NCBI GenBank assembly: GCA_964472845.1 | Contig: CAYYND010000003.1 | Span: 1 to 43,897 of the forward strand | Length of the DNA: 43,897 nt | Direction of reading: 5' to 3' | Source of the DNA: an uncultured Lachnospiraceae bacterium | GTDB taxonomy: Bacteria; Bacillota; Clostridia; Oscillospirales; CAG-272 | Shown: in pieces, positions 10,780 through 28,264 of the stretch | Layout of the letters: every line of letters starts with the position of its first letter | Numbering within the stretch: position 1 is the first letter of the stretch | Translations under genes and position numbers: made by a program | Notes under the pieces: model-generated | What the model saw: the letters and a program-made list of their open reading frames with translations, nothing else | Databases searched by the model: none | What the model was told of the DNA's origin: nothing

Positions 10780-10822
10780 TGCAGATCAAAAGCAAAACGT
10801 CGAATATATAAGGAGAGTTAAA

Positions 10823-11479
10823 ATGGAAGGGTACAAAAGAGAGTTTATTGAATTTTTGCAGGGAGCCGGTGTCTTGAAATTCGGAGATTTTACAGCAAAG
10901 AGCGGAAGAAAGATCCCCTATTTTATTAACGCAGGCGACATAAAAACAGGCGATCAGATTGCAAAGCTCGGTGAGTTTTACGCAAAAAGCTATCTTGAAA
11001 AGGTAGGAAACAAAAGAGCGGTTCTTTACGGCCCCGCCTACAAGGGTATTCCGATAGCCGTTTCGGCAGCAGTTGCGTTGGCTAAGAACGAACTTGATGT
11101 TCCTTTCTTCTTCAACCGTAAGGAAGAGAAGGATCACGGAGAGGGCGGCATATTCGTAGGCTATGTTCCGAAGTCGGGCGAGGAGATCGTCATTGTTGAG
11201 GATGTTATCACTGCAGGTACCGCCATACGCGAGAGTATGTCAAATCTTCAAAGACTTGACGGCACTAAAGTTGCCGCGACCTTCGTTATGGTAGACAGAA
11301 AAGAGAAGGGCAAGGGTGAGAAGAGCGCTATGGCTGAGATCGAAGAAGAATACGGATTTCCCGTTTATTCCGTTGTCGATGTTTATGATATCATCGAATA
11401 TCTCGAGGAAGACCCTGCTAATAAAGAAAATGTTGACAGAATAAAGAATTATCTTGCGGTAAACGGAGCAAAGGCGTAA
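10823..11479 (+). CDS. pyrE: Orotate phosphoribosyltransferase
   Basis: PRPP-binding motif IVIVEDVITAGTA. I prefer ATG 10823 (MEGYKREFIEF) because AAGGAGAG lies 5-6 nt upstream. The ORF track extends to 10769. Confidence 0.9.
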   Translation: MEGYKREFIEFLQGAGVLKFGDFTAKSGRKIPYFINAGDIKTGDQIAKLGEFYAKSYLEKVGNKRAVLYGPAYKGIPIAVSAAVALAKNELDVPFFFNRKEEKDHGEGGIFVGYVPKSGEEIVIVEDVITAGTAIRESMSNLQRLDGTKVAATFVMVDRKEKGKGEKSAMAEIEEEYGFPVYSVVDVYDIIEYLEEDPANKENVDRIKNYLAVNGAKA

Positions 11480-11501
11480 ATCTTATTTAAGGAGATAAAA
11501 G

Positions 11502-12599
11502 ATGAGAAGCGTTATAGATATTTTGGATCTTACGACGGAAGAGATAGACAGACTTTTGAGCGTAGCAAATGATATTATAGCACACCCCGAAAAATACGCC
11601 GAGGCGTGCCACGGTAAAAAGCTTGCTACTCTTTTCTTTGAACCCTCGACGAGAACGAGACTGAGCTTTGAGGCTGCAATGCTTGAACTTGGCGGATCTG
11701 TCATAGGATTTTCTTCGGCACAGACCTCCTCGGCATCAAAGGGTGAAAGCGTAGCGGATACTTCTAAGGTAATAAGCTGTTATGCGGATATAATCGCTAT
11801 GCGTCACCCCAAAGAGGGCGCTCCGTTTGTTGCGTCGCAAAATGCGTCGATCCCCGTTATAAATGCGGGCGACGGCGGACATTGTCATCCGACGCAAACG
11901 CTGGCAGATCTTTTGACGATACAGAGAGAAAAAGGCAGGCTTCACGACCTTACCGTCGGCTTTTGCGGAGACCTTAAATACGGCAGGACCGTACATTCAC
12001 TCATTTCCGCGCTTTCCAGATACGAAAATATACGTATAGTATTGATCTCTCCCGATGAGCTCAAGCTTCCGAGCTATATCAAAAATGACGTTATGATAAA
12101 GAATAATATGGAATATATACAGACAACCGAGCTTGAAGAGGTAATGCCCGAGCTTGATATTCTTTATATGACTCGTGTTCAGGGAGAAAGATTTGCAAGC
12201 AACGACGAGTATTTAAGACTTCGTGATAGCTATATTCTGACACCGGACAAGCTTAAGAACGCAAAATCCGATCTTGCCATCCTTCATCCGCTTCCGAGAG
12301 TAAATGAAATAAGCGTGAAAATAGATGACGATCCCCGAGCTTGCTATTTTAAGCAGGTATCAAACGGAAAATATATGAGAATGGCACTCATACTCAAGCT
12401 TCTTGATGAGGCAAAGAACCCCGAAAGGAAAAAAGCCGATCATACGGGCAGTGAATATGTAGTCAATAAGCTCAAATGTCGTAACCCGAGGTGTATTACT
12501 ACGGTGGAGCAGGAGCTTGATCAGATCTTTCACGTTACGGATGCCTCTGAAGGGGTATGCAGATGTATTTATTGCGAATCTAAAGAATATATAAAATAA
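11502..12599 (+). CDS. pyrB: Aspartate carbamoyltransferase catalytic chain fused to a PyrI-type zinc domain
   Basis: 365 aa. ATCase motifs STRTR, HPTQ and HPLPR lie within residues 1-302. Residues about 318-365 (KCRNPRCIT...[11 protein letters not shown]) match the Cx4C...Cx2C zinc domain of the regulatory chain. Confidence 0.9.
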
Positions 12600-12648
12600 T
12601 AAAAAACACATACTTATATAACATCGTAATATGTAAAGGAGAATTGCT

Positions 12649-13425
12649 ATGTGGGATCAAACAACAGAAAAGATTGGTGTTACAGGTCACAGAGGCTGTA
12701 AGGCATATATGCCCGAAAATACGCTTATGTCGTTTTCGGAGTCGTTTAAACTCGGTATCGACGTACTGGAGTTTGATGTTCAGCTTACGCTTGACGATGT
12801 TGTCATCGTAATGCACGATACGACCGTCGATCGTACTACCGACGGAAAGGGCGCCGTTTGTTTCAAAACGCTCGCCGAGATGAAAGCACTTGACGCAGGT
12901 GTTAAATTCGGATATCCGGGTGCCCGTGTGCCTACTCTGGATGAAACGCTTCAGCTCATCGTTGATGAGGCAGACAGCAATATGCTGCTCAATGTTGAGA
13001 TAAAGGATCAGACACCTCGCGTTATCGATAAGACGATCGAAGCGCTCCGCCGTTTTGGACTTGTGGAGCGTACCGTTATCGCAAGCTTTGATGCTCAAAC
13101 CTTGCTTTACGTTCAGAAATATTATCCGGAGTTCAAGACTCAGGGTCAACCTCCCGTTTGTATGAAGAGATACGATGAGAGCGTGCTTGACAAGATGTAC
13201 GGCATGGGAGTTCCGATGGATTCGTCCAAACTTCCTACCGATGAAGATATTTTTGAGGTGGTAAAGCTTGCAAACGATCACGGTATTCAAGCTTGGGGAT
13301 ATCATGCTGATAACCGCGAGGCGGCGGAAAGAGCTATGAAATACGGCTTTACCAATATAACCGCTAACGATCCGCGCGAGCTTATCGCTTATCTCGATGA
13401 GATCGGCAGACGTGTAGGCAAATGA
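12649..13425 (+). CDS. Glycerophosphodiester phosphodiesterase family protein
   Basis: 258 aa. GDPD motifs GHRG...PENTLMSF...LEFDVQLTLDDVVIVMHDTTVDRTTDGKG. Confidence 0.85.
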   Translation: MWDQTTEKIGVTGHRGCKAYMPENTLMSFSESFKLGIDVLEFDVQLTLDDVVIVMHDTTVDRTTDGKGAVCFKTLAEMKALDAGVKFGYPGARVPTLDETLQLIVDEADSNMLLNVEIKDQTPRVIDKTIEALRRFGLVERTVIASFDAQTLLYVQKYYPEFKTQGQPPVCMKRYDESVLDKMYGMGVPMDSSKLPTDEDIFEVVKLANDHGIQAWGYHADNREAAERAMKYGFTNITANDPRELIAYLDEIGRRVGK

Positions 13426-13461
13426 TTGTATCGTAAGGATCGGACGATCGATATGATATAT

Positions 13462-13510
13462 AAAAGCAAATATGCCGTTGTACCCTTGCGGTCTCGACAT
13501 ATTTGCTTTT
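13462..13510 (+). terminator. Hairpin terminator after the GDPD gene
   Basis: AAAAGCAAATATG (13462-13474) pairs with CATATTTGCTTTT (13498-13510), followed by TTAT. The loop is 23 nt. Confidence 0.5.
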
Positions 13511-13545
13511 TATCTTTCGGCTTTGTAAATATTCAGGGCATAATA

Positions 13546-13574
13546 TTGACAAATCGACGATATAATGATATCAT
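13546..13574 (+). promoter_or_regulatory. Sigma-A type promoter for the HD-domain gene
   Basis: TTGACA (13546-13551), a 17-nt spacer ending in TGa, then TATCAT (13569-13574). Confidence 0.5.
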
Positions 13575-13617
13575 TATACGATGGATCGATCATAAACAAC
13601 AGATAGGAGAGATAAAG

Positions 13618-14202
13618 GTGCAACCGAAGGAATTTATAACATTTATGAATGTTATCGAAAAGCTAAAGTGCAATACAAGACATTCTTGGACGTCGAGCGG
13701 ACGTCACGAGAGCGTTGCAGAACATTCTTGGCGGCTTGCGGTAATGGCGTTGCTTTGCTCTGATGAATATCCCGAGCTCGATATGGACAAGGTAATAAAA
13801 ATGTGTCTCATACACGATCTCGGAGAGGCGATAACGGGGGATATACCGTCATTCAACAAGACCGAGGAGGACGAAAGAACAGAGGACAAGGCAATAGAAC
13901 AGCTTATGAGCCTTTTGCCGGAGCACTATTCCGAAGAGCTTTCAAGGCTCTTTGATGAGATGAGGGAAAGACAGACTTCGGAGGCTAAACTTTTCAAAGC
14001 ACTTGATAATATGGAGGCAGTAATCTCTCATAATGAAGCGGATATATCAAGCTGGATCCCGTTTGAATACTCGGAAAATCTTGTATACGGACAGGATGCT
14101 GCCGCATGGTCTGATTGGACAAGAAGACTCAGAGCGCAGCTCAAAGAGGATAGCCTGTCAAAGATAGAGCGAGCCCAAAAGCAAAACGGTCAAAAAGAAT
14201 AA
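13618..14202 (+). CDS. HD-domain phosphohydrolase (YfbR-like 5'-nucleotidase family)
   Basis: H...HD...D pattern (ESVAEHSWRLAVMALL, IHDLGEAITGDIP). I prefer the GTG start at 13618, which lies behind an AGGAGAG RBS. The longer ORF from 13426 would run through the terminator and promoter. Confidence 0.75.
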   Translation: MQPKEFITFMNVIEKLKCNTRHSWTSSGRHESVAEHSWRLAVMALLCSDEYPELDMDKVIKMCLIHDLGEAITGDIPSFNKTEEDERTEDKAIEQLMSLLPEHYSEELSRLFDEMRERQTSEAKLFKALDNMEAVISHNEADISSWIPFEYSENLVYGQDAAAWSDWTRRLRAQLKEDSLSKIERAQKQNGQKE

Positions 14203-14272: not shown

Positions 14273-14331
14273 ATGAGCAGTACTTTGCAAGGCATCTTTT
14301 GATGCGCTTTGCGGTTGACTGCTCATTTTTA
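14273..14331. terminator. Bidirectional terminator between the HD gene and ldh
   Basis: ATGAGCAGT (14273-14281) pairs with ACTGCTCAT (14318-14326). An inner GCATC-TTTT-GATGC hairpin is present. An A-run lies on the left and a T-run on the right. Confidence 0.55.
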
Positions 14332-14379: not shown

Positions 14380-15321
14380 TTAAAGGTCTATACCCTTGAT
14401 AACGGTTTTGAGATTTTCGGCACTGTTGTGAAGTAATGCTATCTCCTTGTCGTTAAGAGGCAAGAGTACCTTGCTGTGCGCGCCTTCGTTGCCGACTATA
14501 TTTAAAAGGCTGAGGCATACATCGTTGATGCCGTATTCACCGTGTGTCATAGTTGATACCGTCAGGGTCGTGTCGATTCCGCTAAGTAAGCACTTGCAGA
14601 TATGACAAGCTGACATAGATACCGCATAATATGTCGCGCCCTTACGCTGAATAATGCGCGAGCCCGATTTGCGAACGTAGTCCTCGACCTCGTCAAGCTT
14701 GAGCTCGGGATATTTTTCGTGGTTCATAACCGATCTGCCAAAATCCGCAACGGGAATGTTGGATATGTTTGCTACAGACCACGGAATAAATCCGGAGTCG
14801 CCGTGTTCACCAAGTACATAAGCGTGTACATTCATCTGGCTGACAGAGTAATATTCCGATATTCTTGAACGGAGTCTTGCCGTATCAAGTATCGTACCCG
14901 ATCCGATGACTTTGGATTCGGGAAGCCCCGTATATTTGCAGAAAACGTATGTAAGGATGTCGACCGGGTTACTTACTATAACATACGTTGCATTAGGAGC
15001 AAGCTTTACCACATTGTCTGCTACGGTCTTCATTATGTTTACGTTCGTCTGTGTAAGCTCAAGTCGTGACTGTCCGGGCTTTCTTGCGATTCCCGACGTA
15101 ATGATAACGATATCGGAATCCTTTGCATCCTCATAATTTCCTGCGTAGATCGTGGTAGGATTGCAGAAGGGCGTTCCCTGGCGTATGTCGAGCGCCTCGC
15201 CGAGTGCTTTGTCTTTGTTGATATCGATCATAACGATCTCGGATGCAGTACCTAAGATTGTTAATGAATATGCTATCGTTGCTCCCACACTGCCGGAGCC
15301 GATAATTGTAATTTTATTCAT
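14380..15321 (-). CDS. ldh: L-lactate dehydrogenase
   Basis: 313 aa. Rossmann motif IIGSGSVGATIAYSL and the LDH-type GEHGDS motif. Starts only 39 nt downstream of hydA2 on the same strand. Confidence 0.9.
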   Translation of the reverse strand: MNKITIIGSGSVGATIAYSLTILGTASEIVMIDINKDKALGEALDIRQGTPFCNPTTIYAGNYEDAKDSDIVIITSGIARKPGQSRLELTQTNVNIMKTVADNVVKLAPNATYVIVSNPVDILTYVFCKYTGLPESKVIGSGTILDTARLRSRISEYYSVSQMNVHAYVLGEHGDSGFIPWSVANISNIPVADFGRSVMNHEKYPELKLDEVEDYVRKSGSRIIQRKGATYYAVSMSACHICKCLLSGIDTTLTVSTMTHGEYGINDVCLSLLNIVGNEGAHSKVLLPLNDKEIALLHNSAENLKTVIKGIDL

Positions 15322-15360
15322 ATGTTTTCCTCTGTCTTCTTGTATGATTTATTTGTTGGG

Positions 15361-16791
15361 TCATTTAAGAACGGATATCGCGTCTCCGATGGTTTTCTCG
15401 AGAGCTTCGCGTCCGTATTTGTCGACCTCTGACTTGCTTTTTTCTCCGTGTGTTAAGCAACCTGCTCCGCCGATACATCCGCCGATGCAAGCCATTCCTT
15501 CGATGAAGTTACCGTCAAGGACGCCTTTGTTCAGCTTGAGAAGTGCCACACGGCACGCTTCTATGCCGTCACATACGACAGGCTTTACGGTAAAGTCAAT
15601 ATTCTGCTCCTTCATAGCCTGTGCCGCCGCATCCGTAAGTCCTCCGCTTCTTGCAAAGATCCTTCCAAAGTAAGAGGCGTTATCGAGCACGCCCTCTTCA
15701 AGCGACTGAATATCAATATCACGGCTGTCAAAGAGTGCCTGAAGCTCTTCAAAGGTCAGTACGGTATCTATATAGGGCTTGACTGCCTCAAGCTGAGCCT
15801 CCGCCTTCTTTGCAGTACAAGGACCGATGAATATGACCTTTGAATTCGGAGTCGTTTCCTTTATGTACTTTGCAAGAGTAGCCATAGGCGACAGATTGTG
15901 AGAGATATGTTCCACAAGATTTGGGAAGTTTGATTTGATGTACTGAACGAACGCAGGACAGCAGGAGCTTGTCAGAATACCTTTTTCGGAGAGCTCGCGA
16001 GCTTCTGCCATCGCGACCATATCCGCACCGAGAGCTGCCTCGATAACATCTTGAAATCCGAGCTTTTTAAGTCCCGTCACTACCTGACCGAGCTTTGCAT
16101 ATGAGAACTGACTTGAGATCGAGGGAGCAACTACGGCATATACCTTATAGCTTCCGTTTTCGGAGTTGCGATTGCTCTTTTTAAGAATATCGATCGCATT
16201 GAGCATAAAGGATTTATCCATAATAGCGCCGAAGGGGCACTGATAAACGCACGCTCCGCACTGAATACACTTGTTGTTATCGATCTTAGCCGCTTTTTCT
16301 TCGTTCATTGATATAGCCTTTACTTTACAAGCGTTCTGACAGGGACGCTTGCGGCTGACGATTGCGGTATAGGGGCACACCTTAGCGCACGCTCCGCACT
16401 CCTTGCATTTCGATTTGTCGATGTGAGCCACATGATTGTGATCAAACGAGAGCGCACCGAATTTGCAAACGTCTTCGCAGCGGTGTGCAAGACACCCGCG
16501 GCAAGCATTCGTTACCTCATAGCCTCCGACGGGACACTCATCGCAGGCGATATCGATCACCTCGATCACGTTCGGATTGTCTTTGTCTCCGCCCATAGCG
16601 AGCTTTACACGTTCTCCGAGTATCGCTCTTTCCTTATAGACACAGCATCGCATTGTCGGCTCATTGCCGGGAACGAGAAGCTTGGGAATATCCATCATAT
16701 TCTCAAGCAATTTATCATTCCAAGCAAGACGCGCAACCTCGCGAAGTACTTTATATTTTAAATGCTGTACCTTTGTATCAAATTTACGCAT
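15361..16791 (-). CDS. hydA2: Monomeric [FeFe]-hydrogenase, ferredoxin-dependent type (HydA2-like)
   Basis: 476 aa from ATG 16791 (GGAGG lies 6 nt upstream). Several CxxCxxCxxxCP ferredoxin motifs. H-cluster motifs TSSCCPAF, GPCTAKKAE and EGMACIGGCIGG. Confidence 0.8.
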   Translation of the reverse strand: MRKFDTKVQHLKYKVLREVARLAWNDKLLENMMDIPKLLVPGNEPTMRCCVYKERAILGERVKLAMGGDKDNPNVIEVIDIACDECPVGGYEVTNACRGCLAHRCEDVCKFGALSFDHNHVAHIDKSKCKECGACAKVCPYTAIVSRKRPCQNACKVKAISMNEEKAAKIDNNKCIQCGACVYQCPFGAIMDKSFMLNAIDILKKSNRNSENGSYKVYAVVAPSISSQFSYAKLGQVVTGLKKLGFQDVIEAALGADMVAMAEARELSEKGILTSSCCPAFVQYIKSNFPNLVEHISHNLSPMATLAKYIKETTPNSKVIFIGPCTAKKAEAQLEAVKPYIDTVLTFEELQALFDSRDIDIQSLEEGVLDNASYFGRIFARSGGLTDAAAQAMKEQNIDFTVKPVVCDGIEACRVALLKLNKGVLDGNFIEGMACIGGCIGGAGCLTHGEKSKSEVDKYGREALEKTIGDAISVLK

Positions 16792-16802
16792 TTTTACCTC
16801 CA

Positions 16803-17975
16803 TTAGAAATAACTTACCTTGATGCGTTTTCCCATCTTTCTGAGGCAACTCGAAAGCTCCTCTACCAAATTCATCTTTATGTTAAAATTTATAGGAAGAT
16901 CGGGGTTCTGGTGAGCAGGATTTACCGCTCTTCCAACATAGAAATTGATGTCCGTTGCCTCTTCAAACAAAAGTCGGCTTATAAGGGACGCACCGTCTTT
17001 TTTAAAATTCCAATCCTCGTAGAGGTCGTTCTCTCCGAGATAATCTTTTGCATATTGAATTACCTTGTTCATTGTAATTACGCCTTCCGTTACAAGATCT
17101 ACACCCTCGATATATGCTATCGGAGGTACATCGCTGCGCTCAAAATTCAAGCTCGCCTTTACGGGCTTGCCGAGATATTTTGCCGCAATAGATGACGTTG
17201 TACCGCCGCACACGATATGCTTGCCTTCTTTTGAGAAGAAAAGTGACATCATTCTGGTCGCGTCGTCCCGGTTTGAGGGGGGACCGAACAAAATATTCAT
17301 GGGTTCTCTCTTGCGTATCTTAATAACACAAGCCGTTGTATCATCGCCCGGTTTGTTTCCGTACAGGTTGTCGCACTCATCCACGAGCATAGTCGAGAGA
17401 TTCTTCGCGGTATATCCGCCCGCCGCAAGCGCCAACATATATTCTGCGATATCCTCGCGCTTCCAACCGAAGTTGTATTTGCCTCCCATTCCGGCATGAG
17501 GGCATCCGTCACTCATGGCTATGAAAACGTCATCCTCTTGCAGGCTGATGGTAGACTTGTATATCTTTTTACCGTCGATGTTCATCTCAGTCTTTGGATA
17601 ATCGTACAGCGCAAAATCTCTGATGATGATAACCTGAGGATTATCGTACTGAATGATCTCGGCTAACTCATTATTCAAAAGATGAATAATCGTGAATGTT
17701 GAATATGCCACGCCTCTTACCGAGCATACGGGAAGCGTTGCGGCAATAGTTGCTACACATTCCTCAATGGGAAGTCCCGCAGCCATCATCGTGGAGATTA
17801 TTTTGGAAGTTAGAGTTGAAAGTATGCTTGCTTTGACTCCCGAACCGAGACCGTCAGCCAATACTATGACGGTGGAGTTCTCGTTTTCTTCAACAACGTC
17901 TACGTGATCACCGCAAAGCTCTTCTCCGAAGTGATTGATGCTTTTGTATCCGATATCTGCACACAGATCATTCAT
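16803..17975 (-). CDS. SpoIIE/PP2C-family serine phosphatase with an uncharacterised C-terminal domain
   Basis: 390 aa. PP2C metal motifs ELCGDHV, LADGLGSGVKA, AMSDG and GDDTTACVI lie within residues 1-210. The remaining roughly 180 aa have no motif I recognise. Its start overlaps the hydS stop by 8 nt. Confidence 0.8.
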   Translation of the reverse strand: MNDLCADIGYKSINHFGEELCGDHVDVVEENENSTVIVLADGLGSGVKASILSTLTSKIISTMMAAGLPIEECVATIAATLPVCSVRGVAYSTFTIIHLLNNELAEIIQYDNPQVIIIRDFALYDYPKTEMNIDGKKIYKSTISLQEDDVFIAMSDGCPHAGMGGKYNFGWKREDIAEYMLALAAGGYTAKNLSTMLVDECDNLYGNKPGDDTTACVIKIRKREPMNILFGPPSNRDDATRMMSLFFSKEGKHIVCGGTTSSIAAKYLGKPVKASLNFERSDVPPIAYIEGVDLVTEGVITMNKVIQYAKDYLGENDLYEDWNFKKDGASLISRLLFEEATDINFYVGRAVNPAHQNPDLPINFNIKMNLVEELSSCLRKMGKRIKVSYF

Positions 17976-19656
17976 CGTTGATAGACTCCTTTAGCTTGGT
18001 TAAGGCTATCTTGGTCTCAGCCGCCGTTTCTCCGAGCAGGGAAGCGATCTCCTGAACTATCCTCATCTGCTTTTCTACCACGGTATCCGCAACCTCAACA
18101 GTCTTTTGATTGATCCTTGTCTTGTTCTCGCGAGCAGCTTCATCTGCGGTAATGTCACGCATAATTCCGATAAGAAGATGAGATTCGGGATCGTATACGA
18201 CCGTTTGCTCAACATATTTTTTGTATTCCGCAAGATATGCCGTTTGGTTGTTTACGCTTCTTCCGCTGTTTTTGACTTGAACGAATACGGTAGGATCAAG
18301 AATACGAATGACAGGCTCGCCGAGTACATCGGACTCGGCGCGGATGTTCATTATCTTACGCGCCGCCGCGTTTACTTGCTGTACCTCAAGATTTTCATTG
18401 AGTACGATAAGTCCGTTGGGGGTGTTTTTAACTATCGTGTCGGAGAAGCTTTCCGCCTTATCTTTAAGATAGGGCAGACACATGGATATCTCCGCCTTGC
18501 CCTGAATTATCGCGATGGCCTTTTCACGGCAGGAATTGTATCCGCAAGAGCCGCAGTTAAGCTCGTCTGAAGGCTTGAATTTACCCATCTGACGAAGGAC
18601 AGTCATGATCTCATTTTCGGTAGGCTGAGCAAGTCTGTGCTCGATCATCGTCATATGCTTGCGAAGCTCCATCGGTGTAGGCTGTGGTACTTTAAAATCG
18701 CGCTCACCCGCAAAATTTGCAACTGCCATATAATCCTTGACAGGGGACGAGCTGTGATACTTTTCCATAACGGGGCCGCCTATGCAGCTTCCGATGCAAG
18801 CCGACATCTCGATAAAGCATTTGTGAACCTTACCGTTTTCAATATCTTTAAGCGCGGCGATACAGTTGTCAACACCGTCGAGCGCAAGGTAACTGTATCC
18901 CGGAGCATTCTGAGCCATTGTTTTAAGTATACCGCCTGTGGTGGGGAAGAAGCGTGCGCGACTTTCCGGTTTGGGCTCAACTTCTTTTTCAAGCTCTATA
19001 TTCTCGGCTTTTAACATTTTTGTGAGCTCTTCAAATGTAAGAACGGCGTCCACTAAACCATCGTAATATTCAGCCTCATCCTTTTTTGCTACGCAGGGAC
19101 CGATAAAGACAGTCTTGGCGTTTGGTATACGCTTTTTGATGTCTGCGCAGTGTGCTTGCATAGGAGACATAGTATCCGCAAGGTATTCGAGCAATGAGGG
19201 AAAATATTTTTGTATCAACAAGTTTATGGAATGACAGCACGAGCTTATAACTACATCTCTGTCCTCCTCGCGAAGCATACGTTCATACTCCGTTTTAACG
19301 ATAGTGGCACCGATAGCGGTCTCTTCAACATCATAAAATCCGAGTTTTTGAAGCCCGCGGCGCATAGCTTGGATTCCGACGCCTTCGTAATTTGCAATAA
19401 ACGACGGCGCCAAACTGACAATAACGGGATCTCCGCTTTGAAGGAGCACTCTTACCTTTTCCGTGCCGTCAACTATTTCCTTTGCGTTTTGGGGACAAAC
19501 GACAAAGCAATGACCGCATAAAATACACTCATTGCCTATGATATGAGCTTGGTTCCCCGAAAAACGTATAGCCTTGACGGGGCAGTAACGGATACATTTA
19601 TAGCAGTTTTTGCAATTTGATTTTTTTAGTGTCAAGCAATTTGCCAATTCCGTCAC
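17968..19656 (-). CDS. hydS: Sensory-type [FeFe]-hydrogenase homologue with C-terminal PAS domain (HydS-like)
   Basis: 562 aa. Two N-terminal CxxCxxCxxxC motifs. A modified H-domain (SSCCHS, GPCVAKKDE, EMSACIGSCIGGP). An extra Cx2Cx4Cx16C motif (C368-C393). A PAS-like region at about residues 403-505. The GTG start overlaps the upstream stop (GTGA). Confidence 0.8.
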   Translation of the reverse strand: MTELANCLTLKKSNCKNCYKCIRYCPVKAIRFSGNQAHIIGNECILCGHCFVVCPQNAKEIVDGTEKVRVLLQSGDPVIVSLAPSFIANYEGVGIQAMRRGLQKLGFYDVEETAIGATIVKTEYERMLREEDRDVVISSCCHSINLLIQKYFPSLLEYLADTMSPMQAHCADIKKRIPNAKTVFIGPCVAKKDEAEYYDGLVDAVLTFEELTKMLKAENIELEKEVEPKPESRARFFPTTGGILKTMAQNAPGYSYLALDGVDNCIAALKDIENGKVHKCFIEMSACIGSCIGGPVMEKYHSSSPVKDYMAVANFAGERDFKVPQPTPMELRKHMTMIEHRLAQPTENEIMTVLRQMGKFKPSDELNCGSCGYNSCREKAIAIIQGKAEISMCLPYLKDKAESFSDTIVKNTPNGLIVLNENLEVQQVNAAARKIMNIRAESDVLGEPVIRILDPTVFVQVKNSGRSVNNQTAYLAEYKKYVEQTVVYDPESHLLIGIMRDITADEAARENKTRINQKTVEVADTVVEKQMRIVQEIASLLGETAAETKIALTKLKESINDE

Positions 19657-19916
19657 TTCCTTTCGTTCTCGATCACGTCAAGTATGTTTTCTTTAAAAAA
19701 TTCTCTGAAATTCTCTCTTGTCACTCCGACGTGAATATCATCGTTTACCTGAACGGTAACTCCGACGCGGTTGCACTTTCCGATGCAAAAGCTACCGGAA
19801 AGTACGACCTCGTCCTCAATATGATATTCCTCAACGGCTTTCTCAAGGAGCTCGACGATATCGTACGAGCCCTTGAGGTGGCAAGACGAGCCAACACAAA
19901 CCTGGACAAACAGCAT
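19653..19916 (-). CDS. Thioredoxin-like [2Fe-2S] ferredoxin (NuoE/HndA-like small protein), copy 2
   Basis: 87 aa. Cx4C...Cx3C pattern (CVGSSCH...FCIGKC). Paralogue of the adjacent 81-aa ORF. Confidence 0.7.
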   Translation of the reverse strand: MLFVQVCVGSSCHLKGSYDIVELLEKAVEEYHIEDEVVLSGSFCIGKCNRVGVTVQVNDDIHVGVTRENFREFFKENILDVIENERK

Positions 19917-19918
19917 AA

Positions 19919-20164
19919 TTATTTTACCTTAGCAAGTACTTCTTCCGCGAAAAATTCACCTACGTTTTCAGGTGTAACTGAATAAAACGAATCGTTTACG
20001 GTAACGCAAACGCCCTGCTGGCATTTTCCCATACAGAAGGTGCCGCTGAGCTCTACTTTGTCACCGACCTTGTTTTCGGCGATAAGATACTGAAGCTGTT
20101 CTACTACTTGACGTGAACCCTTGATATGGCAGGAGCTTCCGATACAAACTGTTACTTTAATCAT
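19919..20164 (-). CDS. Thioredoxin-like [2Fe-2S] ferredoxin, copy 1
   Basis: 81 aa. CIGSSCH...FCMGKC. Separated from copy 2 by 2 nt. Confidence 0.7.
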   Translation of the reverse strand: MIKVTVCIGSSCHIKGSRQVVEQLQYLIAENKVGDKVELSGTFCMGKCQQGVCVTVNDSFYSVTPENVGEFFAEEVLAKVK

Positions 20165-20232
20165 AATAATTACCTCTCAATGTATAAAAAGTATGAAAAT
20201 CATTTTTGGTATTGAAATTCTGTGGAATGATC

Positions 20233-20982
20233 TTATTCGTAATCTACAACGCCGACCCAGCTCATAAGGAATTCGCGTTCTTTTTCGTTGCCCTTTACAG
20301 ATTGTGAAGCGGCTACGATGGGCATCCATTTCTGTACGTATTGCTTAGCGGTATCGCTCTTTTTGCAGAAGGTGTCAAGATATATCTGCGCGCCCGTGAT
20401 GTCTCCGTTCAGCCAGAAGAGAAGATATGTTCTGGCGGCATCTGCGGAAGCGTTACCTTGCGTTGCGTGTGACCAATCTATTATATACGGAGCACCGTTC
20501 TCGGCAATGATTATGTTGGAGGGGTTGAAATCTCCGTGGCATACCTTGTTATGCTTTGGCATGCTCTCAAGGCGTGTGTGAAGATCGTAACGGGTGGTTG
20601 CGTCAAGATCCGTCTGAGCGATCTTGCGGCTCATCTTATCCTTGAGCTTATTGAGAAGGGGAGAGGTCTTTTCGTGAACGCTCATCTGAATATCAACGAG
20701 CAGTTCGATGTACTCTTCCTTTTTCTCGGGAGCTTCTTCCATAAGCTGTGCCAGGGTCTTTCCTTTAATGTATTCGGAAACGATCGCCCATTTGCCGTCT
20801 ACCATGGTGACTTCAAGGATCTTGGGAATGTTAAGCCCTGTTTCCTCGATCCTTGCCTGATTGAGTGCCTCGTTCAGAACATCTGCTTTTGAATATTCCG
20901 AATTAAAAACCTTTATACATTTATCACCCTCACGGTATATCGTCTTGCTGTTTCTTACTGCTATTACTCTGTCAAGTTTCAT
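20233..20982 (-). CDS. APH/choline-kinase-fold protein kinase-like phosphotransferase
   Basis: 249 aa. Catalytic loop CHGDFNPSNIII and IIDWSHATQGNASADAARTY, an APH-type HxDxxxxN...IDW pattern. Starts 18 nt downstream of adhE. Confidence 0.7.
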   Translation of the reverse strand: MKLDRVIAVRNSKTIYREGDKCIKVFNSEYSKADVLNEALNQARIEETGLNIPKILEVTMVDGKWAIVSEYIKGKTLAQLMEEAPEKKEEYIELLVDIQMSVHEKTSPLLNKLKDKMSRKIAQTDLDATTRYDLHTRLESMPKHNKVCHGDFNPSNIIIAENGAPYIIDWSHATQGNASADAARTYLLFWLNGDITGAQIYLDTFCKKSDTAKQYVQKWMPIVAASQSVKGNEKEREFLMSWVGVVDYE

Positions 20983-21000
20983 TTTTGATTCCTCCTGCCG

Positions 21001-23697
21001 TTAGGCTTTCTTTCCCTTGCGGTAAGGGGTCTTGACCGCATCGGGCGTTATTTCGGATATATCAGACGCAGGCATATCCGCCTCTACGAAGTGCTTGCCG
21101 TAATATGCGTTGAGATACATCTGCTTGATCTCGCTCATAAGAGGATAACGCGGGTTAGCACCTGTGCACTGATCGTCAAATGCCTGTTCTACCATATCGT
21201 CAAGGCGAGCCAAGAAGTCATTTTCGTCGATACCGTAATCCTTTATGTTCTTCTTGATACCTACGCGAGCTTTAAGGTCGTTGATGGCTTCAATGAGCTT
21301 CTCAAGCTTTTCTTCATCGGTTTTGCCACCGAGTCCGAGGTAATCCGCAACCTCAGCATATCTTGCGAGCGTATGAGGATGATCGTACTGCGAGAAGGTA
21401 CCCATCTTAGCAGGAGCCTCTGCGGCATTGAAACGAAGTACCTCTTCGATCATAAGCGCATTTGCTACGCCGTGGGGAAGGTGATGGAACGCACCGAGCT
21501 TGTGAGCCATTGAGTGACATACGCCAAGGAATGCGTTTGCGAATGCCATACCTGCCATTGTAGCGGCGTTAGCCATCTTTTCTCTTGCTTCAACGTCGGT
21601 CTGACCGTTGTCGTAAGCTCTGGGAAGGTATTCAAAGATCACCTTGAGCGCACGGAGTGCAAGACCGTCTGTGTAATCAGTCGCCAACATAGCGGCATAC
21701 GCCTCAAGCGCATGCGTTACTGCATCGATACCCGATGCAGCTGTCAAGCCTCTCGGAGCCGACATATGGAAGTCTGTATCGATAATAGCCATATTGGGAA
21801 GCAGCTCGTAATCCGCGAGAGGATACTTAACACCTGTCTTTTCATCCGTGATGACTGCGAAGGGTGTGACCTCGGAGCCGGTACCTGCGGAGGTGGGGAT
21901 AGCGATGAAATATGCCTTTTCGCCCATCTTCGGGAATGTGTATACTCTCTTACGGATATCGATAAATCTCATCGCCATATCCATAAAGTCTGCCTCGGGA
22001 TGCTCGTAAAGTACCCACATAATTTTGCCGGCATCCATTGCGGAGCCGCCGCCGAGCGCTATAATGGTATCGGGCTGGAATGCTCTCATCTGGGCTGCGC
22101 CTTCCATAGCATTGGCAAGCGTCGGATCGGGCTGAACATTGAAGAATGTAGTGTGCTGGATCCCCATTTCGTCGAGCTTATCCGTGATCGGCTTGGTGTA
22201 TCCGTTCTGATAGAGGAAGGTGTCAGTTACGATAAACGCCTTCTTTGCGCCTCTTACGGTCTTCAGCTCGTCGAGAGCTACGGGGAGGCAACCCTTTTTA
22301 ATATATACCTTCTCGGGGGTTCTGAACCAAAGCATATTTTCTCTCCTCTCGGCAACTGTTTTAATGTTGATAAGGTGCTTTACACCGACGTTTTCGGATA
22401 CGCTGTTACCGCCCCAGGATCCGCATCCGAGCGTGAGCGAGGGAGCGAGTTTGAAGTTGTAAAGATCACCGATACCGCCCTGCGAGGAGGGAGTGTTTAC
22501 GAGGATACGGCAGGTCTTCATTCTTGCGGCGAACGCACTGAGCTTTTCCTTCTCGGTTACTTCATTGAGATAGACGGAAGAGGTGTGACCGTAGCCGCCA
22601 TCGGCAACGAGTCTGTCTGCTTTGTCAAGCGCTTCTTCAAAGGTCTTTACCTTGTACATAGCGAGTACGGGCGAAAGCTTTTCGTGTGCGAATTCCTCGG
22701 AAAGCTCTACGCTCTCGACTTCACCGATGAGGATTTTAGTGCCCGCGGGAACCTTAACACCCGCAAGCTCGGCGATCTTAGCAGCCTTCTGACCTACTAT
22801 CTTGGCGTTGAGCGCGCCGTTTATGATGATAGTCTTTCTGACCTTTTCGGTTTCCATAGGATCAAGGAAATAGCATCCTCTTGCCGCAAATTCGGATTTT
22901 ACCGCATCATATATGCTTTCGAGAACGATCACAGACTGCTCGGATGCGCATATCATACCGTTGTCGAAGGTCTTTGAATGAATGATCGAGTTGACCGCAA
23001 GAAGGATATCCGCACTTTCATCGATTATTGCAGGTGTGTTACCGGCACCGACTCCGAGAGCAGGCTTTCCGCTGGAATATGCGGCTTTAACCATGCCGGG
23101 ACCGCCTGTCGCGAGAATTATATCCGCTTCCTTCATAAGTGTGTTTGTCATTTCGAGAGAGGGAATATCTATCCAATCTATGATACCCTCGGGAGCACCT
23201 GCGGCAACTGCGGCTTCAAGAACGAGCTTTGCAGCGGCAATGGTGGCACCCTTTGCTCTGGGGTGAGGGCTTATAATAATGGCATTGCGTGTCTTGAGCG
23301 CGATAAGGCACTTGAAGATCGCGGTGGATGTGGGGTTCGTTGTCGGGATGACCGCCGCGATAACACCTATAGGCTCTGCGATCTTTTTGATACCGTATGC
23401 CTTGTCTTCCTCTATAACGCCGCACGTCTTTGTGTCTTTGTAAGCGTTGTAGATGTATTCTGCGGCGTAGTGATTCTTTATTACCTTATCCTCAACTATG
23501 CCCATACCTGTTTCTTCGACAGCAAGCTTTGCCAGCGGAATTCTTGCTTTGTCTGCAGCAGATGCTGCGGCAAGGAATATCCTGTCAACCTGCTCCTGGG
23601 TGTAGGTCGCAAACAGTTTTTGAGCCGCTCTTACGCGTGAGAGCGCTTCGTGCAGCTTTTCTACGCTGTCGACGATTTCATAAGCTTTGGGTTCCAT
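21001..23697 (-). CDS. adhE: Bifunctional acetaldehyde-CoA / alcohol dehydrogenase
   Basis: 898 aa. An N-terminal ALDH domain and a C-terminal iron-ADH domain (GGGSAMDAGK, histidine-rich metal site HSMAHKLGAFHHLPHG). AGGAGG RBS. Confidence 0.95.
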   Translation of the reverse strand: MEPKAYEIVDSVEKLHEALSRVRAAQKLFATYTQEQVDRIFLAAASAADKARIPLAKLAVEETGMGIVEDKVIKNHYAAEYIYNAYKDTKTCGVIEEDKAYGIKKIAEPIGVIAAVIPTTNPTSTAIFKCLIALKTRNAIIISPHPRAKGATIAAAKLVLEAAVAAGAPEGIIDWIDIPSLEMTNTLMKEADIILATGGPGMVKAAYSSGKPALGVGAGNTPAIIDESADILLAVNSIIHSKTFDNGMICASEQSVIVLESIYDAVKSEFAARGCYFLDPMETEKVRKTIIINGALNAKIVGQKAAKIAELAGVKVPAGTKILIGEVESVELSEEFAHEKLSPVLAMYKVKTFEEALDKADRLVADGGYGHTSSVYLNEVTEKEKLSAFAARMKTCRILVNTPSSQGGIGDLYNFKLAPSLTLGCGSWGGNSVSENVGVKHLINIKTVAERRENMLWFRTPEKVYIKKGCLPVALDELKTVRGAKKAFIVTDTFLYQNGYTKPITDKLDEMGIQHTTFFNVQPDPTLANAMEGAAQMRAFQPDTIIALGGGSAMDAGKIMWVLYEHPEADFMDMAMRFIDIRKRVYTFPKMGEKAYFIAIPTSAGTGSEVTPFAVITDEKTGVKYPLADYELLPNMAIIDTDFHMSAPRGLTAASGIDAVTHALEAYAAMLATDYTDGLALRALKVIFEYLPRAYDNGQTDVEAREKMANAATMAGMAFANAFLGVCHSMAHKLGAFHHLPHGVANALMIEEVLRFNAAEAPAKMGTFSQYDHPHTLARYAEVADYLGLGGKTDEEKLEKLIEAINDLKARVGIKKNIKDYGIDENDFLARLDDMVEQAFDDQCTGANPRYPLMSEIKQMYLNAYYGKHFVEADMPASDISEITPDAVKTPYRKGKKA

Positions 23698-23718
23698 TTT
23701 TATGTGTCCTCCTAAAAA

Positions 23719-24342
23719 TTATTTACTGATTTGATTATTGAGATATGCAAGGGAGAGCGCTAAATTTTCCTGTTTGAGAAGTATACCTTCGGGGATCTTT
23801 AACGTGCAGGGAGCAAAGTTCCATATAGCCGTGATCCCGCTTTCGACAAGCTGATCACAGACCTCTTGAGCTGAGCCACGTCCGACCGTGATTATGCCGA
23901 GCTTTATGTCATTCTCTTTGCAGAATGTATCAAGAGTACTTACCGGCAAAATAGCCTTGGAAGTATTTCCTGTCCGAATGATCTGCTCATTGCAGTCGAA
24001 TGCGGCGACTATTTTTACTCCGAACTCTTCAAATCCGTCATAATCCAAAAGCGCTTTGCCGAGTTTTCCCGCTCCGACAAGGACCGCATGCGTCAGCCTG
24101 TCATATCCGAGATGACCTTCTATGTCGCTTATAAGCGCGCTGGTTACGTATCCTATCTTCGGTTTTCCCGCACCGCTTACTGCCGCAAGGTCCTTGCGCA
24201 CCTGAACCTCGCCGAGCGACAAGCCCTTGGCGATCGCGGTCGCGGATACGGTGCTGTACTCAAGCTCGGGTAAGCTTTTAAGATATTGAAGATACTGCGG
24301 AAGTCTTCCGAGTGTTGCTTTCGGTATGCTGTATCCGTTCAT
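23719..24342 (-). CDS. rex: Redox-sensing transcriptional repressor Rex
   Basis: 207 aa. N-terminal winged helix (IPKATLGRLPQYLQYL) and a Rossmann motif LVGAGKLGKAL. Its stop lies 21 nt upstream of adhE. Confidence 0.9.
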   Translation of the reverse strand: MNGYSIPKATLGRLPQYLQYLKSLPELEYSTVSATAIAKGLSLGEVQVRKDLAAVSGAGKPKIGYVTSALISDIEGHLGYDRLTHAVLVGAGKLGKALLDYDGFEEFGVKIVAAFDCNEQIIRTGNTSKAILPVSTLDTFCKENDIKLGIITVGRGSAQEVCDQLVESGITAIWNFAPCTLKIPEGILLKQENLALSLAYLNNQISK

Positions 24343-24362
24343 TCGCCACCTCCTTGATTTTA

Positions 24363-24379
24363 TCGTTAATATTTTATCA
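24363..24379 (-). promoter_or_regulatory. Candidate Rex operator overlapping the rex promoter -10
   Basis: The minus strand reads TGATAAAATATTAACGA, against the clostridial Rex consensus TGTTAA-N4-TTAACA (2 core mismatches). The background is AT-rich, so chance cannot be excluded. Confidence 0.3.
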
Positions 24380-24399
24380 TACTTTTTGCATTTTGGGAA
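24371..24399 (-). promoter_or_regulatory. Candidate promoter of the rex-adhE...ldh block
   Basis: On the minus strand: TTCCCA (24394-24399), a 17-nt spacer ending in TGa, then TAAAAT (24371-24376). Confidence 0.4.
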
Positions 24400-24406: not shown

Positions 24407-24467
24407 AATGTTATATCGGTGTTATGCTTATCGATATAACATTAATCGATAAGCAAGATATCGATTA
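24407..24467. repeat. Four (A)TCG(A/G)T palindromic cores phased every 15 bp, forming two overlapping inverted repeats
   Basis: ATCGGT lies at 24415 and ATCGAT at 24430, 24445 and 24460. AATGTTATATCG (24407-24418) is inverted with respect to CGATATAACATT (24432-24443). CTTATCGAT (24427-24435) is inverted with respect to ATCGATAAG (24445-24453). Confidence 0.6.
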
Positions 24468-24497
24468 AATAAGGCGATGCGCAGTATGATCGGAGGA

Positions 24498-25427
24498 TCA
24501 GTTGTTATTCAGATATTTTCTTTTTGATTCGCAAAGTTCAGTGATAAACTGCTTGTCGAGCTCTGTTAGTTTGTATCCGTTACGGTATATGAGGACATCT
24601 TTATATATCTTTTGGTTATCGGCGCATTTTTTCTGAACAAGATCGTACCTGTCGAGCATCTTCTTGGGAGCGGGGGAGACCCACATAAACGTATCCGAAT
24701 TTTTTGAAAGCAGATCAAATTGGCTGGCTCTCTCGAATATAAATATACGCCTTTGGATGCTGTCACGAAGTTCTTCCTTTACCACCTTTGAAAGGGGCAT
24801 AGACGGAACATAAGGGTCCGCGTGAGCTATTTCTATATACGGGAGCAGATCGTCGCAAATTATCTCGTCCTTTTGAGCGAGGGGATTGTCTCGGCTCATA
24901 ATCAAAACGTAAGAAAATTCCGAGATCATCTCGTACGCCAGCCCTTTTTCATCAAGCATATCTTTGAAATATCGGTCGTAATTGTCGGCGTATCGAATTA
25001 TTCCGAGCTTGTAATCCTTGTTCAAAATATTATTTATGGCGCGTTGAGAGTTGGTCTCTTTGTAAAAGATCTCCGCGGGATCGTCACTTAAACATTTGGA
25101 AAATTCGGCAAATGCCTCCGATATATAGCAAGCGCGGGGGACAGATACTGAGAACTGCTGCTTTTTCGGCGCTCCGTGCTTGTACAACATTTCGACTTCA
25201 TCGATCTGCTTGAGTATACTCTGAGCGTAATTTATGAATTCTTCGCCTTCGGGAGTCAACACCATTCCTTTGGCACTTCTGTTGAATATTGTGATTCCGA
25301 GATCAGCCTCAAGCTCTTTTATTGAGCGGCTAATATTTGGCTGAGCAATTATCAGCGACTCCGACGCTTTATTGAGCGATCCGAGGCGCGCTACCTCGAC
25401 CGCGTATTTCATATGAAGTATATTCAT
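24498..25427 (-). CDS. LysR-family transcriptional regulator
   Basis: N-terminal HTH (MNILHMKYAVEVARLGSLNKASESLIIAQPNISRSIKELE) and a LysR substrate-binding C-terminal domain. I prefer ATG 25427 over the GTG at 25460. Confidence 0.85.
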   Translation of the reverse strand: MNILHMKYAVEVARLGSLNKASESLIIAQPNISRSIKELEADLGITIFNRSAKGMVLTPEGEEFINYAQSILKQIDEVEMLYKHGAPKKQQFSVSVPRACYISEAFAEFSKCLSDDPAEIFYKETNSQRAINNILNKDYKLGIIRYADNYDRYFKDMLDEKGLAYEMISEFSYVLIMSRDNPLAQKDEIICDDLLPYIEIAHADPYVPSMPLSKVVKEELRDSIQRRIFIFERASQFDLLSKNSDTFMWVSPAPKKMLDRYDLVQKKCADNQKIYKDVLIYRNGYKLTELDKQFITELCESKRKYLNNN

Positions 25428-25478
25428 AAACGTGGTATCCCTTCGTTTAGTGGATTTCACAAAAATTCTTCAGTTTAT

Positions 25479-26111: not shown

Positions 26112-27164
26112 ATGTCAATAGGCTTGACGTTGCTTGGCATCATAATAACCGCGATAATCAATTTGGGCTTTTCAAAGGGCTTGATAGCTTTTTGTGTCGG
26201 CACGGCGTTTTGTATAGCAAGCGAGATGAGTCAGATATGTATAAGCGTTAACGCGCGGCTTATCTATGATGAGGAGGAGGCATACGCCGAAAAGATAGAT
26301 GCTTACAATACGTCGGTCATTATGACATCGGTCAGAGTCTCGTTCTTTAATATTGCCGCATTTGCGTTTTGCTTGCCGCTCGTTACCATTATCGACGGAG
26401 CTAATTTCGGCTTGAAATTCGGCTTTTGGTTAGAATACGGAGCGCTGTTCGCGTCTGTATGCGCAGTCGTTTCCTACATTGTTTACGAGCTTTTGATAAA
26501 AAAACTTTTGATGAAGCGATGCTTGATATCTCTATCGGATACCCAAAAAGAAATAATGTCTCGCAACACCAAGCTTCTCAAAAAAACTTTTGCGATTTCG
26601 TTAGGTATAGCCTTAGCAATTCTTGCCGTGATCGTGTTGCTGAATACTATCATCCGTGCAATCGGTCCAAAGAAGTACGTATTTGACAATTGCGAGGATT
26701 TTAAGACCTTCGTGCAAAACGATTACGACCGTTGGTACAACGAGGGGTATCGTTATTATGATAATAACGGCGATGTTGTAATAAGTTATCCCATAGGCGG
26801 TGTTTACGTTGAAGGGGATAAGGAACCCATCTGGTCCGGGGGTGAAGAGAATGAAGAATATCCGCGGAAGATATATGCCGAGATTACCAATTCAAAGGGC
26901 GAGATAATTTGCGAATACTACTATAATCCGGATCTTTACTATGATATTACGTTTACCGAGTTTACGAATGACAAAATGCCCGTGACTGTGATAACAAAAG
27001 AGGACTATTACGCGCAGCTTGACGTGAATTCAACGATCGAATCTTTCATATATTTTCTGATATGCGTCGATATTGTGATCTCGATCGCGATATATGCGAT
27101 CAAGTTGTATAAGATCAAAAGAAGCGTGCAGACCGATCGGCTCGATACACATAAAAATAAATGA
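26112..27164 (+). CDS. Multi-pass membrane protein (possibly the C-terminal part of the same split gene)
   Basis: 350 aa. About 5-6 hydrophobic helices and a Tyr/Asp/Glu-rich soluble loop. No good RBS. The reading frame is open upstream to 26028. Confidence 0.6.
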   Translation: MSIGLTLLGIIITAIINLGFSKGLIAFCVGTAFCIASEMSQICISVNARLIYDEEEAYAEKIDAYNTSVIMTSVRVSFFNIAAFAFCLPLVTIIDGANFGLKFGFWLEYGALFASVCAVVSYIVYELLIKKLLMKRCLISLSDTQKEIMSRNTKLLKKTFAISLGIALAILAVIVLLNTIIRAIGPKKYVFDNCEDFKTFVQNDYDRWYNEGYRYYDNNGDVVISYPIGGVYVEGDKEPIWSGGEENEEYPRKIYAEITNSKGEIICEYYYNPDLYYDITFTEFTNDKMPVTVITKEDYYAQLDVNSTIESFIYFLICVDIVISIAIYAIKLYKIKRSVQTDRLDTHKNK

Positions 27165-28203: not shown

Positions 28204-28264
28204 TTTTCGATCTCCTTTTCTTTGATTTTCGACGGTAACTGCCGACCGTGCTTTTCTGTCCTCA

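Follow-up and report, generated by a model that had tools for sequence, protein, structure and literature searches.

How a fermenting bacterium might read both H2 and NADH at a single locus, and distribute its electrons among H2, ethanol, and lactate in response, is a question raised by a contig of an uncultured Lachnospiraceae bacterium (GenBank assembly GCA_964472845.1, contig CAYYND010000003.1). The analysed stretch, in the following called the window, comprises 43,897 nucleotides (nt), and at 14380-24342 of its minus strand nine consecutive open reading frames (ORFs) were found. In gene order, they encode the redox-sensing repressor Rex, the bifunctional acetaldehyde-CoA/alcohol dehydrogenase AdhE, an APH/RIO-like kinase, two thioredoxin-like [2Fe-2S] ferredoxins (FdxA and FdxB), the putative H2-sensing [FeFe]-hydrogenase HydS, a SpoIIE/PP2C-type phosphatase (PP2C), the group B [FeFe]-hydrogenase HydA2, and an L-lactate dehydrogenase (Ldh). 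We consider it probable that an uncultured, Ruminococcus-like bacterium of the gut carries here the orthologue of the H2-responsive Ruminococcus albus 7 cluster, extended at its 3' end by an L-ldh gene.

Interspecies hydrogen transfer, the output of methane, and the yield of biofuels all depend on how fermenters of the gut and the rumen sense H2 and choose between acetate plus H2 on the one hand and ethanol or lactate on the other. The block is real and coherent, and it is largely known, being another cluster of the R. albus 7 type plus ldh. What is new is modest: the ldh tail, which gives the first arrangement with both adhE and ldh among the loci sampled, and the recurrent capture of ldh; a conserved promoter with a dyad and a Rex box next to a LysR gene; and an unclassified domain of the phosphatase.

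Relationship to the cluster of Ruminococcus albus 7

A megablast search of the block against a plasmid collection gave no match; instead, the R. albus 7 locus was reached by a protein search of this collection, which matched HydS (69% identity) on plasmid pRUMAL01. There, genes for LysR, Rex, AdhE, a phosphotransferase, two (2Fe-2S) ferredoxin-domain proteins, an [Fe-Fe] hydrogenase-domain protein, a SpoIIE phosphatase, and a 4Fe-4S dicluster protein (HydA2) follow one another on one strand. Both loci share the eight genes from rex to hydA2, arranged and oriented identically, with a LysR gene upstream and an overlap of hydS and pp2c, their products are 51-81% identical, and in R. albus 7, too, a dyad (TATATCG-N13-CGATATA) stands ahead of the promoter. 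The window differs in that it adds ldh, has three ATCGAT hexamers rather than two, and places the cluster beside pyrimidine genes in a context that looks chromosomal, whereas the R. albus 7 cluster is located on a 420-kb plasmid. On these comparisons, the resemblance is one of orthology in gene order, beyond mere gene content.

The precedent of R. albus 7 had been named in an earlier note on this DNA, which was made from the sequence alone, and it proved correct both in the gene order on pRUMAL01 and in the description of the cluster as H2-responsive in the papers on this strain. According to these papers, hydA2 is transcribed as a unit with hydS on pRUMAL01, hydA2 transcripts are down 90-fold in co-culture with Wolinella, and a "putative eight-gene cluster" is expressed at an about 111-fold lower level at low H2, that is, in co-culture with an H2 consumer, where ethanol production stops. 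Zheng et al. (2014), as cited in a later paper, proposed that HydS senses H2 and that its PAS domain signals to the adjacent Ser/Thr kinase. R. albus 7 offers an equivalent cluster in a cultured strain that is equally or more tractable; the window is useful for the design of experiments and will not surprise the specialist.

The invariant core and its variable additions

A scan based on the HydS alignment, with one genome per species, yielded at least 80 loci with 74-85% HydS identity, whose hosts are gut and rumen metagenome-assembled genomes labelled Ruminococcus, Acutalibacteraceae, Oscillospiraceae, Eubacterium CAG:180, and similar. The ten proteins of the window were placed on each locus by tblastn, and architectures were tallied for the 35 loci with complete flanks. 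The core fdxA-fdxB-hydS-pp2c-hydA2 was found essentially everywhere (at least 80 species-level loci). In 82 of 82 loci, hydS and pp2c overlap by 5 to 8 nt, and the median spacing amounts to -4 nt between fdxB and hydS and to 12 nt between pp2c and hydA2. Since the synteny extends across more than 80 loci, the arrangement is more than the product of chance.

Among the 35 complete loci, lysR-adhE-kinase-core without rex was the most frequent architecture (12), followed by lysR-rex-adhE-kinase-core, the order of R. albus (5); rex-adhE-kinase-core without an adjacent lysR occurred once. Three loci each had lysR-core, the bare core, or ldh between pp2c and hydA2, and eight were other single variants. 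The eight-gene order from rex to hydA2 is conserved across species (6/35, five of them with an adjacent lysR). The full nine-gene order was found in none of the 35, and adhE and ldh did not occur together in any of these species-level loci. Conservation of the gene order, which the earlier note had named as a check, thus extends across species for eight genes and is confined to the species for all nine. The comparison separates the invariant core from the optional modules: the core is invariant and translationally coupled, and lysR, rex, adhE together with the kinase gene, and ldh are variable add-ons. In a sister species (L084, 87% HydS identity), the stretch between lysR and rex (1194-4764 of that locus) encodes an Fe-alcohol dehydrogenase together with a pair of NfnAB-like proteins (DHODB_Fe-S_bind plus pyridine-nucleotide oxidoreductase), which seem to constitute another redox module joined to the same cluster.

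Transcriptional organization

The spacings computed from the ORF coordinates are, in gene order, gaps of 21, 18, 68, and 2 nt, overlaps of 4 and 8 nt, and gaps of 11 and 39 nt, exactly as given in the earlier note for nine genes on the minus strand. The 8-nt overlap of hydS and pp2c reads ATGAATGA. One purely cosmetic amendment concerns the start of hydS, which is more likely TTG at 19647 than GTG at 19656, because AGGAAG lies 8 nt upstream of the former and abuts the latter, most relatives have 559 amino acids, and the corresponding junction of L084 is a 5-nt gap; with the TTG start, the window would likewise have a 5-nt gap to fdxB in place of the GTGA overlap. The start of hydA2 (ATG at 16791, GGAGG upstream) is sound.

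In the model proposed here, the nine genes would be read as one transcript from about position 24364 to an intrinsic terminator at 14273 (14273-14331, minus strand). This terminator, recognized already in the earlier note, has a strong predicted fold (-28.8 kcal/mol, z = -6.8) followed by U6; with A5 and T6 at its flanks, it is usable both ways and is common to ldh and to the HD, GDPD, and pyrimidine genes converging on it. The claim that the block holds no hairpin plus T-tract has to be qualified slightly: besides the terminator at 14331-14273, the scan of the coding strand found one weak site within fdxA (20012-19993), which was rejected as an internal terminator and probably arose by chance, because its hairpin is conserved neither in relatives nor even in a conspecific contig. 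A promoter-like match in the gap between the kinase gene and fdxA was also rejected, the fdxA start codon falling inside its -10. The remaining promoter-like and terminator-like matches within the block correspond to the expectation from shuffled sequence. A scan of the whole window against Rfam matched no family, and hence none of the described families of riboswitches or leader RNAs is represented.

A different organization, in which the block is not one operon and ldh, perhaps also the unit from fdxA to hydA2, has a promoter of its own, so that related units are merely juxtaposed, is in our judgement quite unlikely. It would be in accord with the absence of ldh from R. albus 7 and the sister species, since a recently added gene could retain its own signals, with the kinase-fdxA gap of 68 nt compared with a median of 18 nt, and with a Rex-like box present in the hydA2-ldh gap of the related locus L033. 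However, the 39-nt gap between hydA2 and ldh in the window contains a ribosome-binding site and no promoter or terminator, and the two internal candidates are the unconserved hairpin and the match overlapping the fdxA start codon. Moreover, in eight other species, ldh stands between pp2c and hydA2, and the gaps of 9-51 nt at these loci make it implausible that it is transcribed independently.

Promoter region and the neighbouring LysR-type regulator

The promoter-like element upstream of rex, which had been noted before, is a sigma-70-type site detected in a promoter scan (TTCCCA-17 nt-TAAAAT with an extended TG; 24371-24399, minus strand), and both AATTCCCAAA and the -10 are kept in register across species. 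Its -10 and the predicted start site are overlapped by a degenerate Rex-box-like palindrome, ATGATAAAATATTAACGA (24363-24380, minus strand), which has three mismatches to TTGTTAANNNNTTAACAA, the consensus of Clostridia-type Rex boxes against which the box of the window was scored. Further upstream, a repeat search revealed an operator-like array of three palindromic ATCGAT hexamers with a 15-bp period (24407-24468, minus strand), composed of two perfect inverted repeats, AATGTTATATCG-N13-CGATATAACATT and TTAATCGATA-N7-TATCGATTAA.

Beyond this array, a gene for a LysR-family regulator (24498-25460, minus strand; Pfam HTH_1, 63.8 bits) is located 155 nt upstream of rex in the same orientation. 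The description of the block as self-contained in the earlier note can therefore not be upheld, as LysR is encoded directly upstream and a conserved dyad array lies between lysR and the promoter. The regulator is 68% identical to the LysR protein at the equivalent position in R. albus 7, and this position is conserved in R. albus 7 and in most loci of the adhE type; within the contiguous cluster, lysR stands directly upstream in 21 of the 35 complete genome loci. A good promoter-like site of its own precedes lysR (25507-25479), and no terminator lies between lysR and rex.

When the intergenic regions between lysR and the first cluster gene from about 35 species were stacked, a shared layout became apparent, consisting of a TATC-N6-GATA / ATATCG-N13-CGATAT dyad, ATTTTAAkAATTCCCAAA, a spacer of about 13 nt, and (A/T)TGTTAAAATATTAACGAAGTC, which is a near-perfect Clostridia-type Rex box and contains the -10. 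The orthologous dyad is positioned at a fixed distance of 56 nt upstream of the Rex box (20 loci), ATCG-N13-CGAT was found in 15 of 21 rex-first loci versus 2 of 50 others, and lysR immediately precedes 17 of the 20 promoters that match best. LysR-type regulators usually bind an A/T-rich dyad centred near -65, and if the start site is deduced from the -10, the proximal dyad of the window is centred at about -61. Some variants of the dyad (GATAATGATAAT) appear to resemble half a Fur box. The conserved promoter and the neighbouring LysR are concrete, testable candidate outputs of the system.

In the 1.36 Mb of fetched loci, 43 Rex boxes with at most two mismatches were counted, 31 of them just upstream of the first cluster gene. 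Boxes with zero to two mismatches over the -10 are characteristic of adhE-first clusters (L012-L076), whereas those of rex-first clusters (L001, L022, L025, L068, and the window) are mostly degenerate. The site of the window is in exact register with boxes of zero to two mismatches in about 28 related loci, and it gains weight only because it is sited where near-perfect boxes are found in these species; it differs in one core base from the two-mismatch box of the sister species L084. The earlier assumption that Rex reads NADH at this locus is thus weakened by the degeneracy of the box and supported by its position. In L028 and L048, two related loci of the ldh type, the region about 120-190 nt upstream of rex contains a distal promoter that has a Rex-like box, then a conserved hairpin (GCCATTTAAG...CTTAAATGGC with a T-rich tail), and only then the ATCGAT array; this element looks like a short leader or an attenuator.

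Rex itself (23719-24342, minus strand; 207 amino acids) has a winged-helix and an NAD(H)-binding Rossmann domain (PF06971 and PF02629) with a GAGKLG motif and scores 246.7 bits with model NF003994, above the curated cut-off of 130. Among all proteins of the block, it shows the lowest conservation (49-79% identity). A separate chromosomal Rex (Rumal_1252) is constitutively expressed in R. albus 7, as reported by Greening et al. (2019), and because that strain has this second protein, the cluster-borne rex is an extra copy.

HydS, the phosphatase, and HydA2

The two ferredoxins, FdxA (19919-20164, minus strand; 81 amino acids) and FdxB (19653-19916, minus strand; 87 amino acids), match PF01257 with 36.8 and 34 bits, respectively. 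HydS (17968-19656, minus strand) shows the domain composition of group C (M2f) hydrogenases, namely N-terminal [4Fe-4S] domains (Fer4 families), an H-domain with four Cys ligands (Fe_hyd_lg_C, 170 bits), a C-terminal four-Cys cluster (PF04060, 41.9 bits), and a PAS domain (25.8 bits, cut-off 22.6). Its active-site motifs are SSCC, GPC, and ACIGSC, and its L3 motif is EMSAC. TmHydS of Thermotoga maritima, which belongs to the same group, has the same domain order and likewise a small residue in place of M353 of the hydrogenase CpI and Ser in place of M497; HydS of the window has Gly and Ser at these positions. At the position of C299, where TmHydS has Ala, the window protein retains Cys (SSCCH), and according to the TmHydS paper, sensors differ from one another in this residue. 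HydA2, too, has Gly at the position of M353. The C-terminal helix of HydS is very strongly conserved.

PP2C (16803-17975, minus strand) consists of a SpoIIE/PP2C phosphatase domain (amino acids 1-221; PF07228, 48.2 bits, cut-off 25), in which the DG, SDG, and GDD motifs with the catalytic Asp residues are invariant, and a conserved unclassified C-terminal domain (amino acids 222-390). An AlphaFold2 model of moderate confidence (mean predicted local distance difference test score, pLDDT, 74) gave SpoIIE (E = 3e-13), RsbU, RsbX, and RssB as top matches in Foldseek, and on this basis the phosphatase domain is grouped with the partner-switching PP2Cs. The C-terminal domain (169 amino acids; 16803-17312) is conserved as strongly as the catalytic domain and has an invariant CGGTTSS loop. 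Its best sequence match is a SIS-type isomerase with an E-value of 0.76, and neither a STAS-like nor a SIS-like reading is supported. In a library clustered at 50% identity, the domain has 1077 representatives, which carry no Pfam names and include proteins of about 160 amino acids spanning the whole domain; the latter may be stand-alone versions. We consider this domain the most likely site at which the signal is received or relayed.

HydA2 (15361-16791, minus strand; 476 amino acids) is a monomeric hydrogenase that scores 578 bits with TIGR04105 (group B1; cut-off 450) and has intact TSSCCP, GPCTAKK, and EGMACIGGC motifs. Its class is a matter of disagreement, as TIGR04105 stands for group B1, whereas the 76%-identical HydA2 of R. 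albus 7 was placed in group A1 by Greening et al. (2019).

Proposed mechanism and comparison with known systems

The following sequence of events is proposed. A build-up of H2 would lead to higher transcription of the cluster: at high H2, the bifurcating hydrogenase could no longer re-oxidize NADH, NADH would rise, and Rex would leave its operator. A second factor acting on the upstream dyads would serve as activator; LysR, encoded next to them, is the obvious choice for this role. The cell would then have three alternative electron sinks at its disposal: reduced ferredoxin would be oxidized by HydA2, and NADH by AdhE and Ldh. HydS would read H2 directly at its modified H-cluster and pass its state via the PAS domain and the C-terminal helix to PP2C.

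In outline, such a system is similar to HoxBC-HoxJ-HoxA of Cupriavidus necator, in which a low-activity hydrogenase is the H2 sensor and controls the expression of catalytic enzymes via phosphorylation. However, the proteins are unrelated, and the Hox system relies on a histidine kinase together with a response regulator whose output is known; the window has PP2C and an atypical kinase in their place. With SpoIIE/SpoIIAA/SpoIIAB and RsbU/RsbV/RsbW, the system shares the predicted structure of the phosphatase domain, which is closest to SpoIIE, RsbU, RsbX, and RssB; in contrast to these modules, it has neither a STAS substrate nor a GHKL anti-sigma kinase, and the 169-residue C-terminal domain is fused to the phosphatase instead. 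In the Pfam scan of the nine proteins, no STAS, HATPase_c, or sigma family was matched, in agreement with the earlier statement that no STAS or sigma partner is encoded here. The system is neither a partner-switching module nor a two-component system.

A parallel to the core is the hfsABCD operon of Thermoanaerobacterium saccharolyticum, as the earlier note had suggested and as holds according to the papers' descriptions: HfsA is a small upstream protein, HfsB a PAS-containing HydS-like protein, HfsC PP2C-like, and HfsD HydA2-like. The hfs operon includes no adhE, rex, kinase gene, or ldh, and adhE is regulated at a distance. In Thermoanaerobacterium, deletion of hfsA or hfsB raises ethanol formation and adhE transcripts, and deletion of hfsC or hfsD diverts flux to lactate. 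By analogy, these genetic data fit a regulatory role of the module and would tie it to both ethanol and lactate.

The main rival of the mechanism proposed above is that HydS, PP2C, and the two ferredoxins are subunits or post-translational controllers of HydA2 in an Hfs-type complex, that HydS and PP2C have no part in the control of transcription, and that H2 is read only indirectly, in that NADH acts on Rex and the upstream factor; we regard this as possible, though clearly the less likely explanation. The core genes overlap or nearly abut everywhere, as is typical of stoichiometric complexes, no transcription factor is encoded within the invariant core, and in about 28 species near-perfect Rex boxes cover the -10. 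In T. saccharolyticum, deletion of hfsA or hfsB alone lowers H2 more than deletion of all four genes, and enzyme activities shift beyond what the transcripts account for. In addition, 1 atm H2 was found not to reduce the C-terminal cluster in a sensor of group D, which challenges earlier ideas on signalling. On the other hand, the PAS domain and the highly conserved C-terminal helix of HydS are typical signalling parts, and TmHydS has low catalytic activity, the HydS protein of the window carrying the same sensory-type substitutions at the active site. Finally, the 111-fold regulation in R. albus 7 occurs although the promoter there has no good Rex box. Sensory [FeFe]-hydrogenases are still described as putative, and their signalling as untested, in papers from 2025-2026, so that the earlier statement that the path from HydS to an output is open holds to date.

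For the proposed sensing of H2 by HydS with transcriptional output, a number of points count on the negative side. Co-transcription of the nine genes is deduced from their spacing and the lack of conserved internal signals alone. With three mismatches, the Rex box of the window is by itself at chance level, as are the results of canonical Rex-box searches of the window alone, and the box of R. albus 7, with seven mismatches, is poorer still; Rex therefore cannot be the whole story in rex-first loci. ATCG-N13-CGAT arrays stand ahead of rex also in six loci without lysR nearby, and because of these loci LysR is not proven to be the protein that binds the ATCGAT array; a search for a second regulator gene upstream in the lysR-less loci found none. 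The C-terminal domain of PP2C (amino acids 222-390) gave no Pfam match even at E = 10 and no match in the PDB, and when modelled alone (AlphaFold2, pLDDT 60), it gave nothing credible in Foldseek. The block encodes no recognizable STAS, response-regulator, or sigma partner, and thus no phospho-target that could be named. Lastly, the architecture counts describe a sample of loci.

AdhE and the atypical kinase

AdhE (21001-23697, minus strand; 898 amino acids) scores 1397.7 bits with NF010378 (cut-off 951). The gene identities given in the earlier note passed curated cut-offs throughout, except for the label Ser/Thr kinase. The protein concerned, an APH/RIO/Bud32-like phosphotransferase of 249 amino acids (20233-20982, minus strand), scores above the Pfam cut-offs for APH (50.6 versus 23.2 bits) and RIO1 (40.9 versus 22 bits) and remains below that for Pkinase (25.8 versus 31.7 bits), and it lacks the GxGxxG motif of Hanks-type Ser/Thr kinases. 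Its nearest solved sequences, all at weak E-values, are choline kinase, Bud32, and hygromycin kinase. The catalytic residues K24, E38, HGD149-151, N156 (HGDxxxxN), and D169 are invariant, and because of this, the protein is predicted to be an active kinase-fold protein of an atypical kind.

The kinase gene follows adhE in all 35 adhE-bearing loci; the ldh-type and minimal loci all lack it and nevertheless retain PP2C. Because it travels with adhE and not with the core, the kinase may serve the ethanol branch and need not be an obligate partner of PP2C. Taken further, this leads to an explanation that we judge doubtful, namely that the kinase is no partner of PP2C at all and, as part of an ethanol module, phosphorylates a small molecule or acts on AdhE. 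Its APH/RIO rather than Hanks-type scores, its weak similarity to choline kinase, Bud32, and hygromycin kinase, its association with adhE, and the hfs operons of Thermoanaerobacterium, which have PP2C and no kinase, are all consistent with this. What speaks against it is that the kinase gene is present without adhE, each time just before fdxA, in at least three loci whose upstream sequence is complete (L008, L066, and L077). Moreover, relatives of the RIO and Bud32 type are protein kinases or ATPases, and Zheng et al. (2014), as cited in a later paper, took the kinase as a Ser/Thr kinase that receives the PAS signal.

Lactate dehydrogenase as an addition

Ldh (14380-15321, minus strand; 313 amino acids) scores 333.9 bits with TIGR01771 (cut-off 303.55). 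The nine-gene order with lysR was found in one conspecific metagenome contig, and the adjacency of hydA2 and ldh in four further samples (five independent contigs). In R. albus 7 and in two contigs of sister species (86-87% HydS identity), the cluster ends at hydA2, and because ldh is absent there, it appears to have been added recently in the lineage of the window. The capture of ldh itself is recurrent, as the gene occupies three positions among the loci sampled: in eight loci it is separated from pp2c by 14-29 nt and from hydA2, which follows it, by 9-51 nt, and its product is 54-58% identical to Ldh of the window; in other loci it follows hydA2 (71-76% identity); and in two it is located divergently upstream (69-70% identity). 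Like AdhE, lactate dehydrogenase is thus repeatedly tied to the sensor.

From these patterns, a bolder scenario can be drawn, which we put forward as a long shot. The core would be a portable H2-sensing cassette that has captured NADH sinks repeatedly and independently, that is, adhE together with the atypical kinase gene, and ldh at three positions, and its output would be the reversible phosphorylation of LysR or of the sink enzymes in place of a relay of the classical two-component or partner-switching kind. The lineage of the window would then be the only one among those sampled that places the sinks for H2, ethanol, and lactate under one promoter gated by H2 and NADH.

Genes flanking the cluster

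On the plus strand of the window, 5257-14202, genes of pyrimidine biosynthesis (a fused protein of the catalytic and regulatory parts of aspartate transcarbamoylase, and pyrE-, pyrF-, pyrD-, and pyrK-like genes) are followed by GDPD and HD-domain genes; together they converge on the terminator of ldh, and their names derive from the Pfam labels of conspecific contigs. On the other side, beside lysR, two ORFs of 350 amino acids (26112-27164, plus strand) and 370 amino acids (27229-28341, minus strand) had no Pfam match at E = 1e-5; both are also present in the conspecific contig L087.

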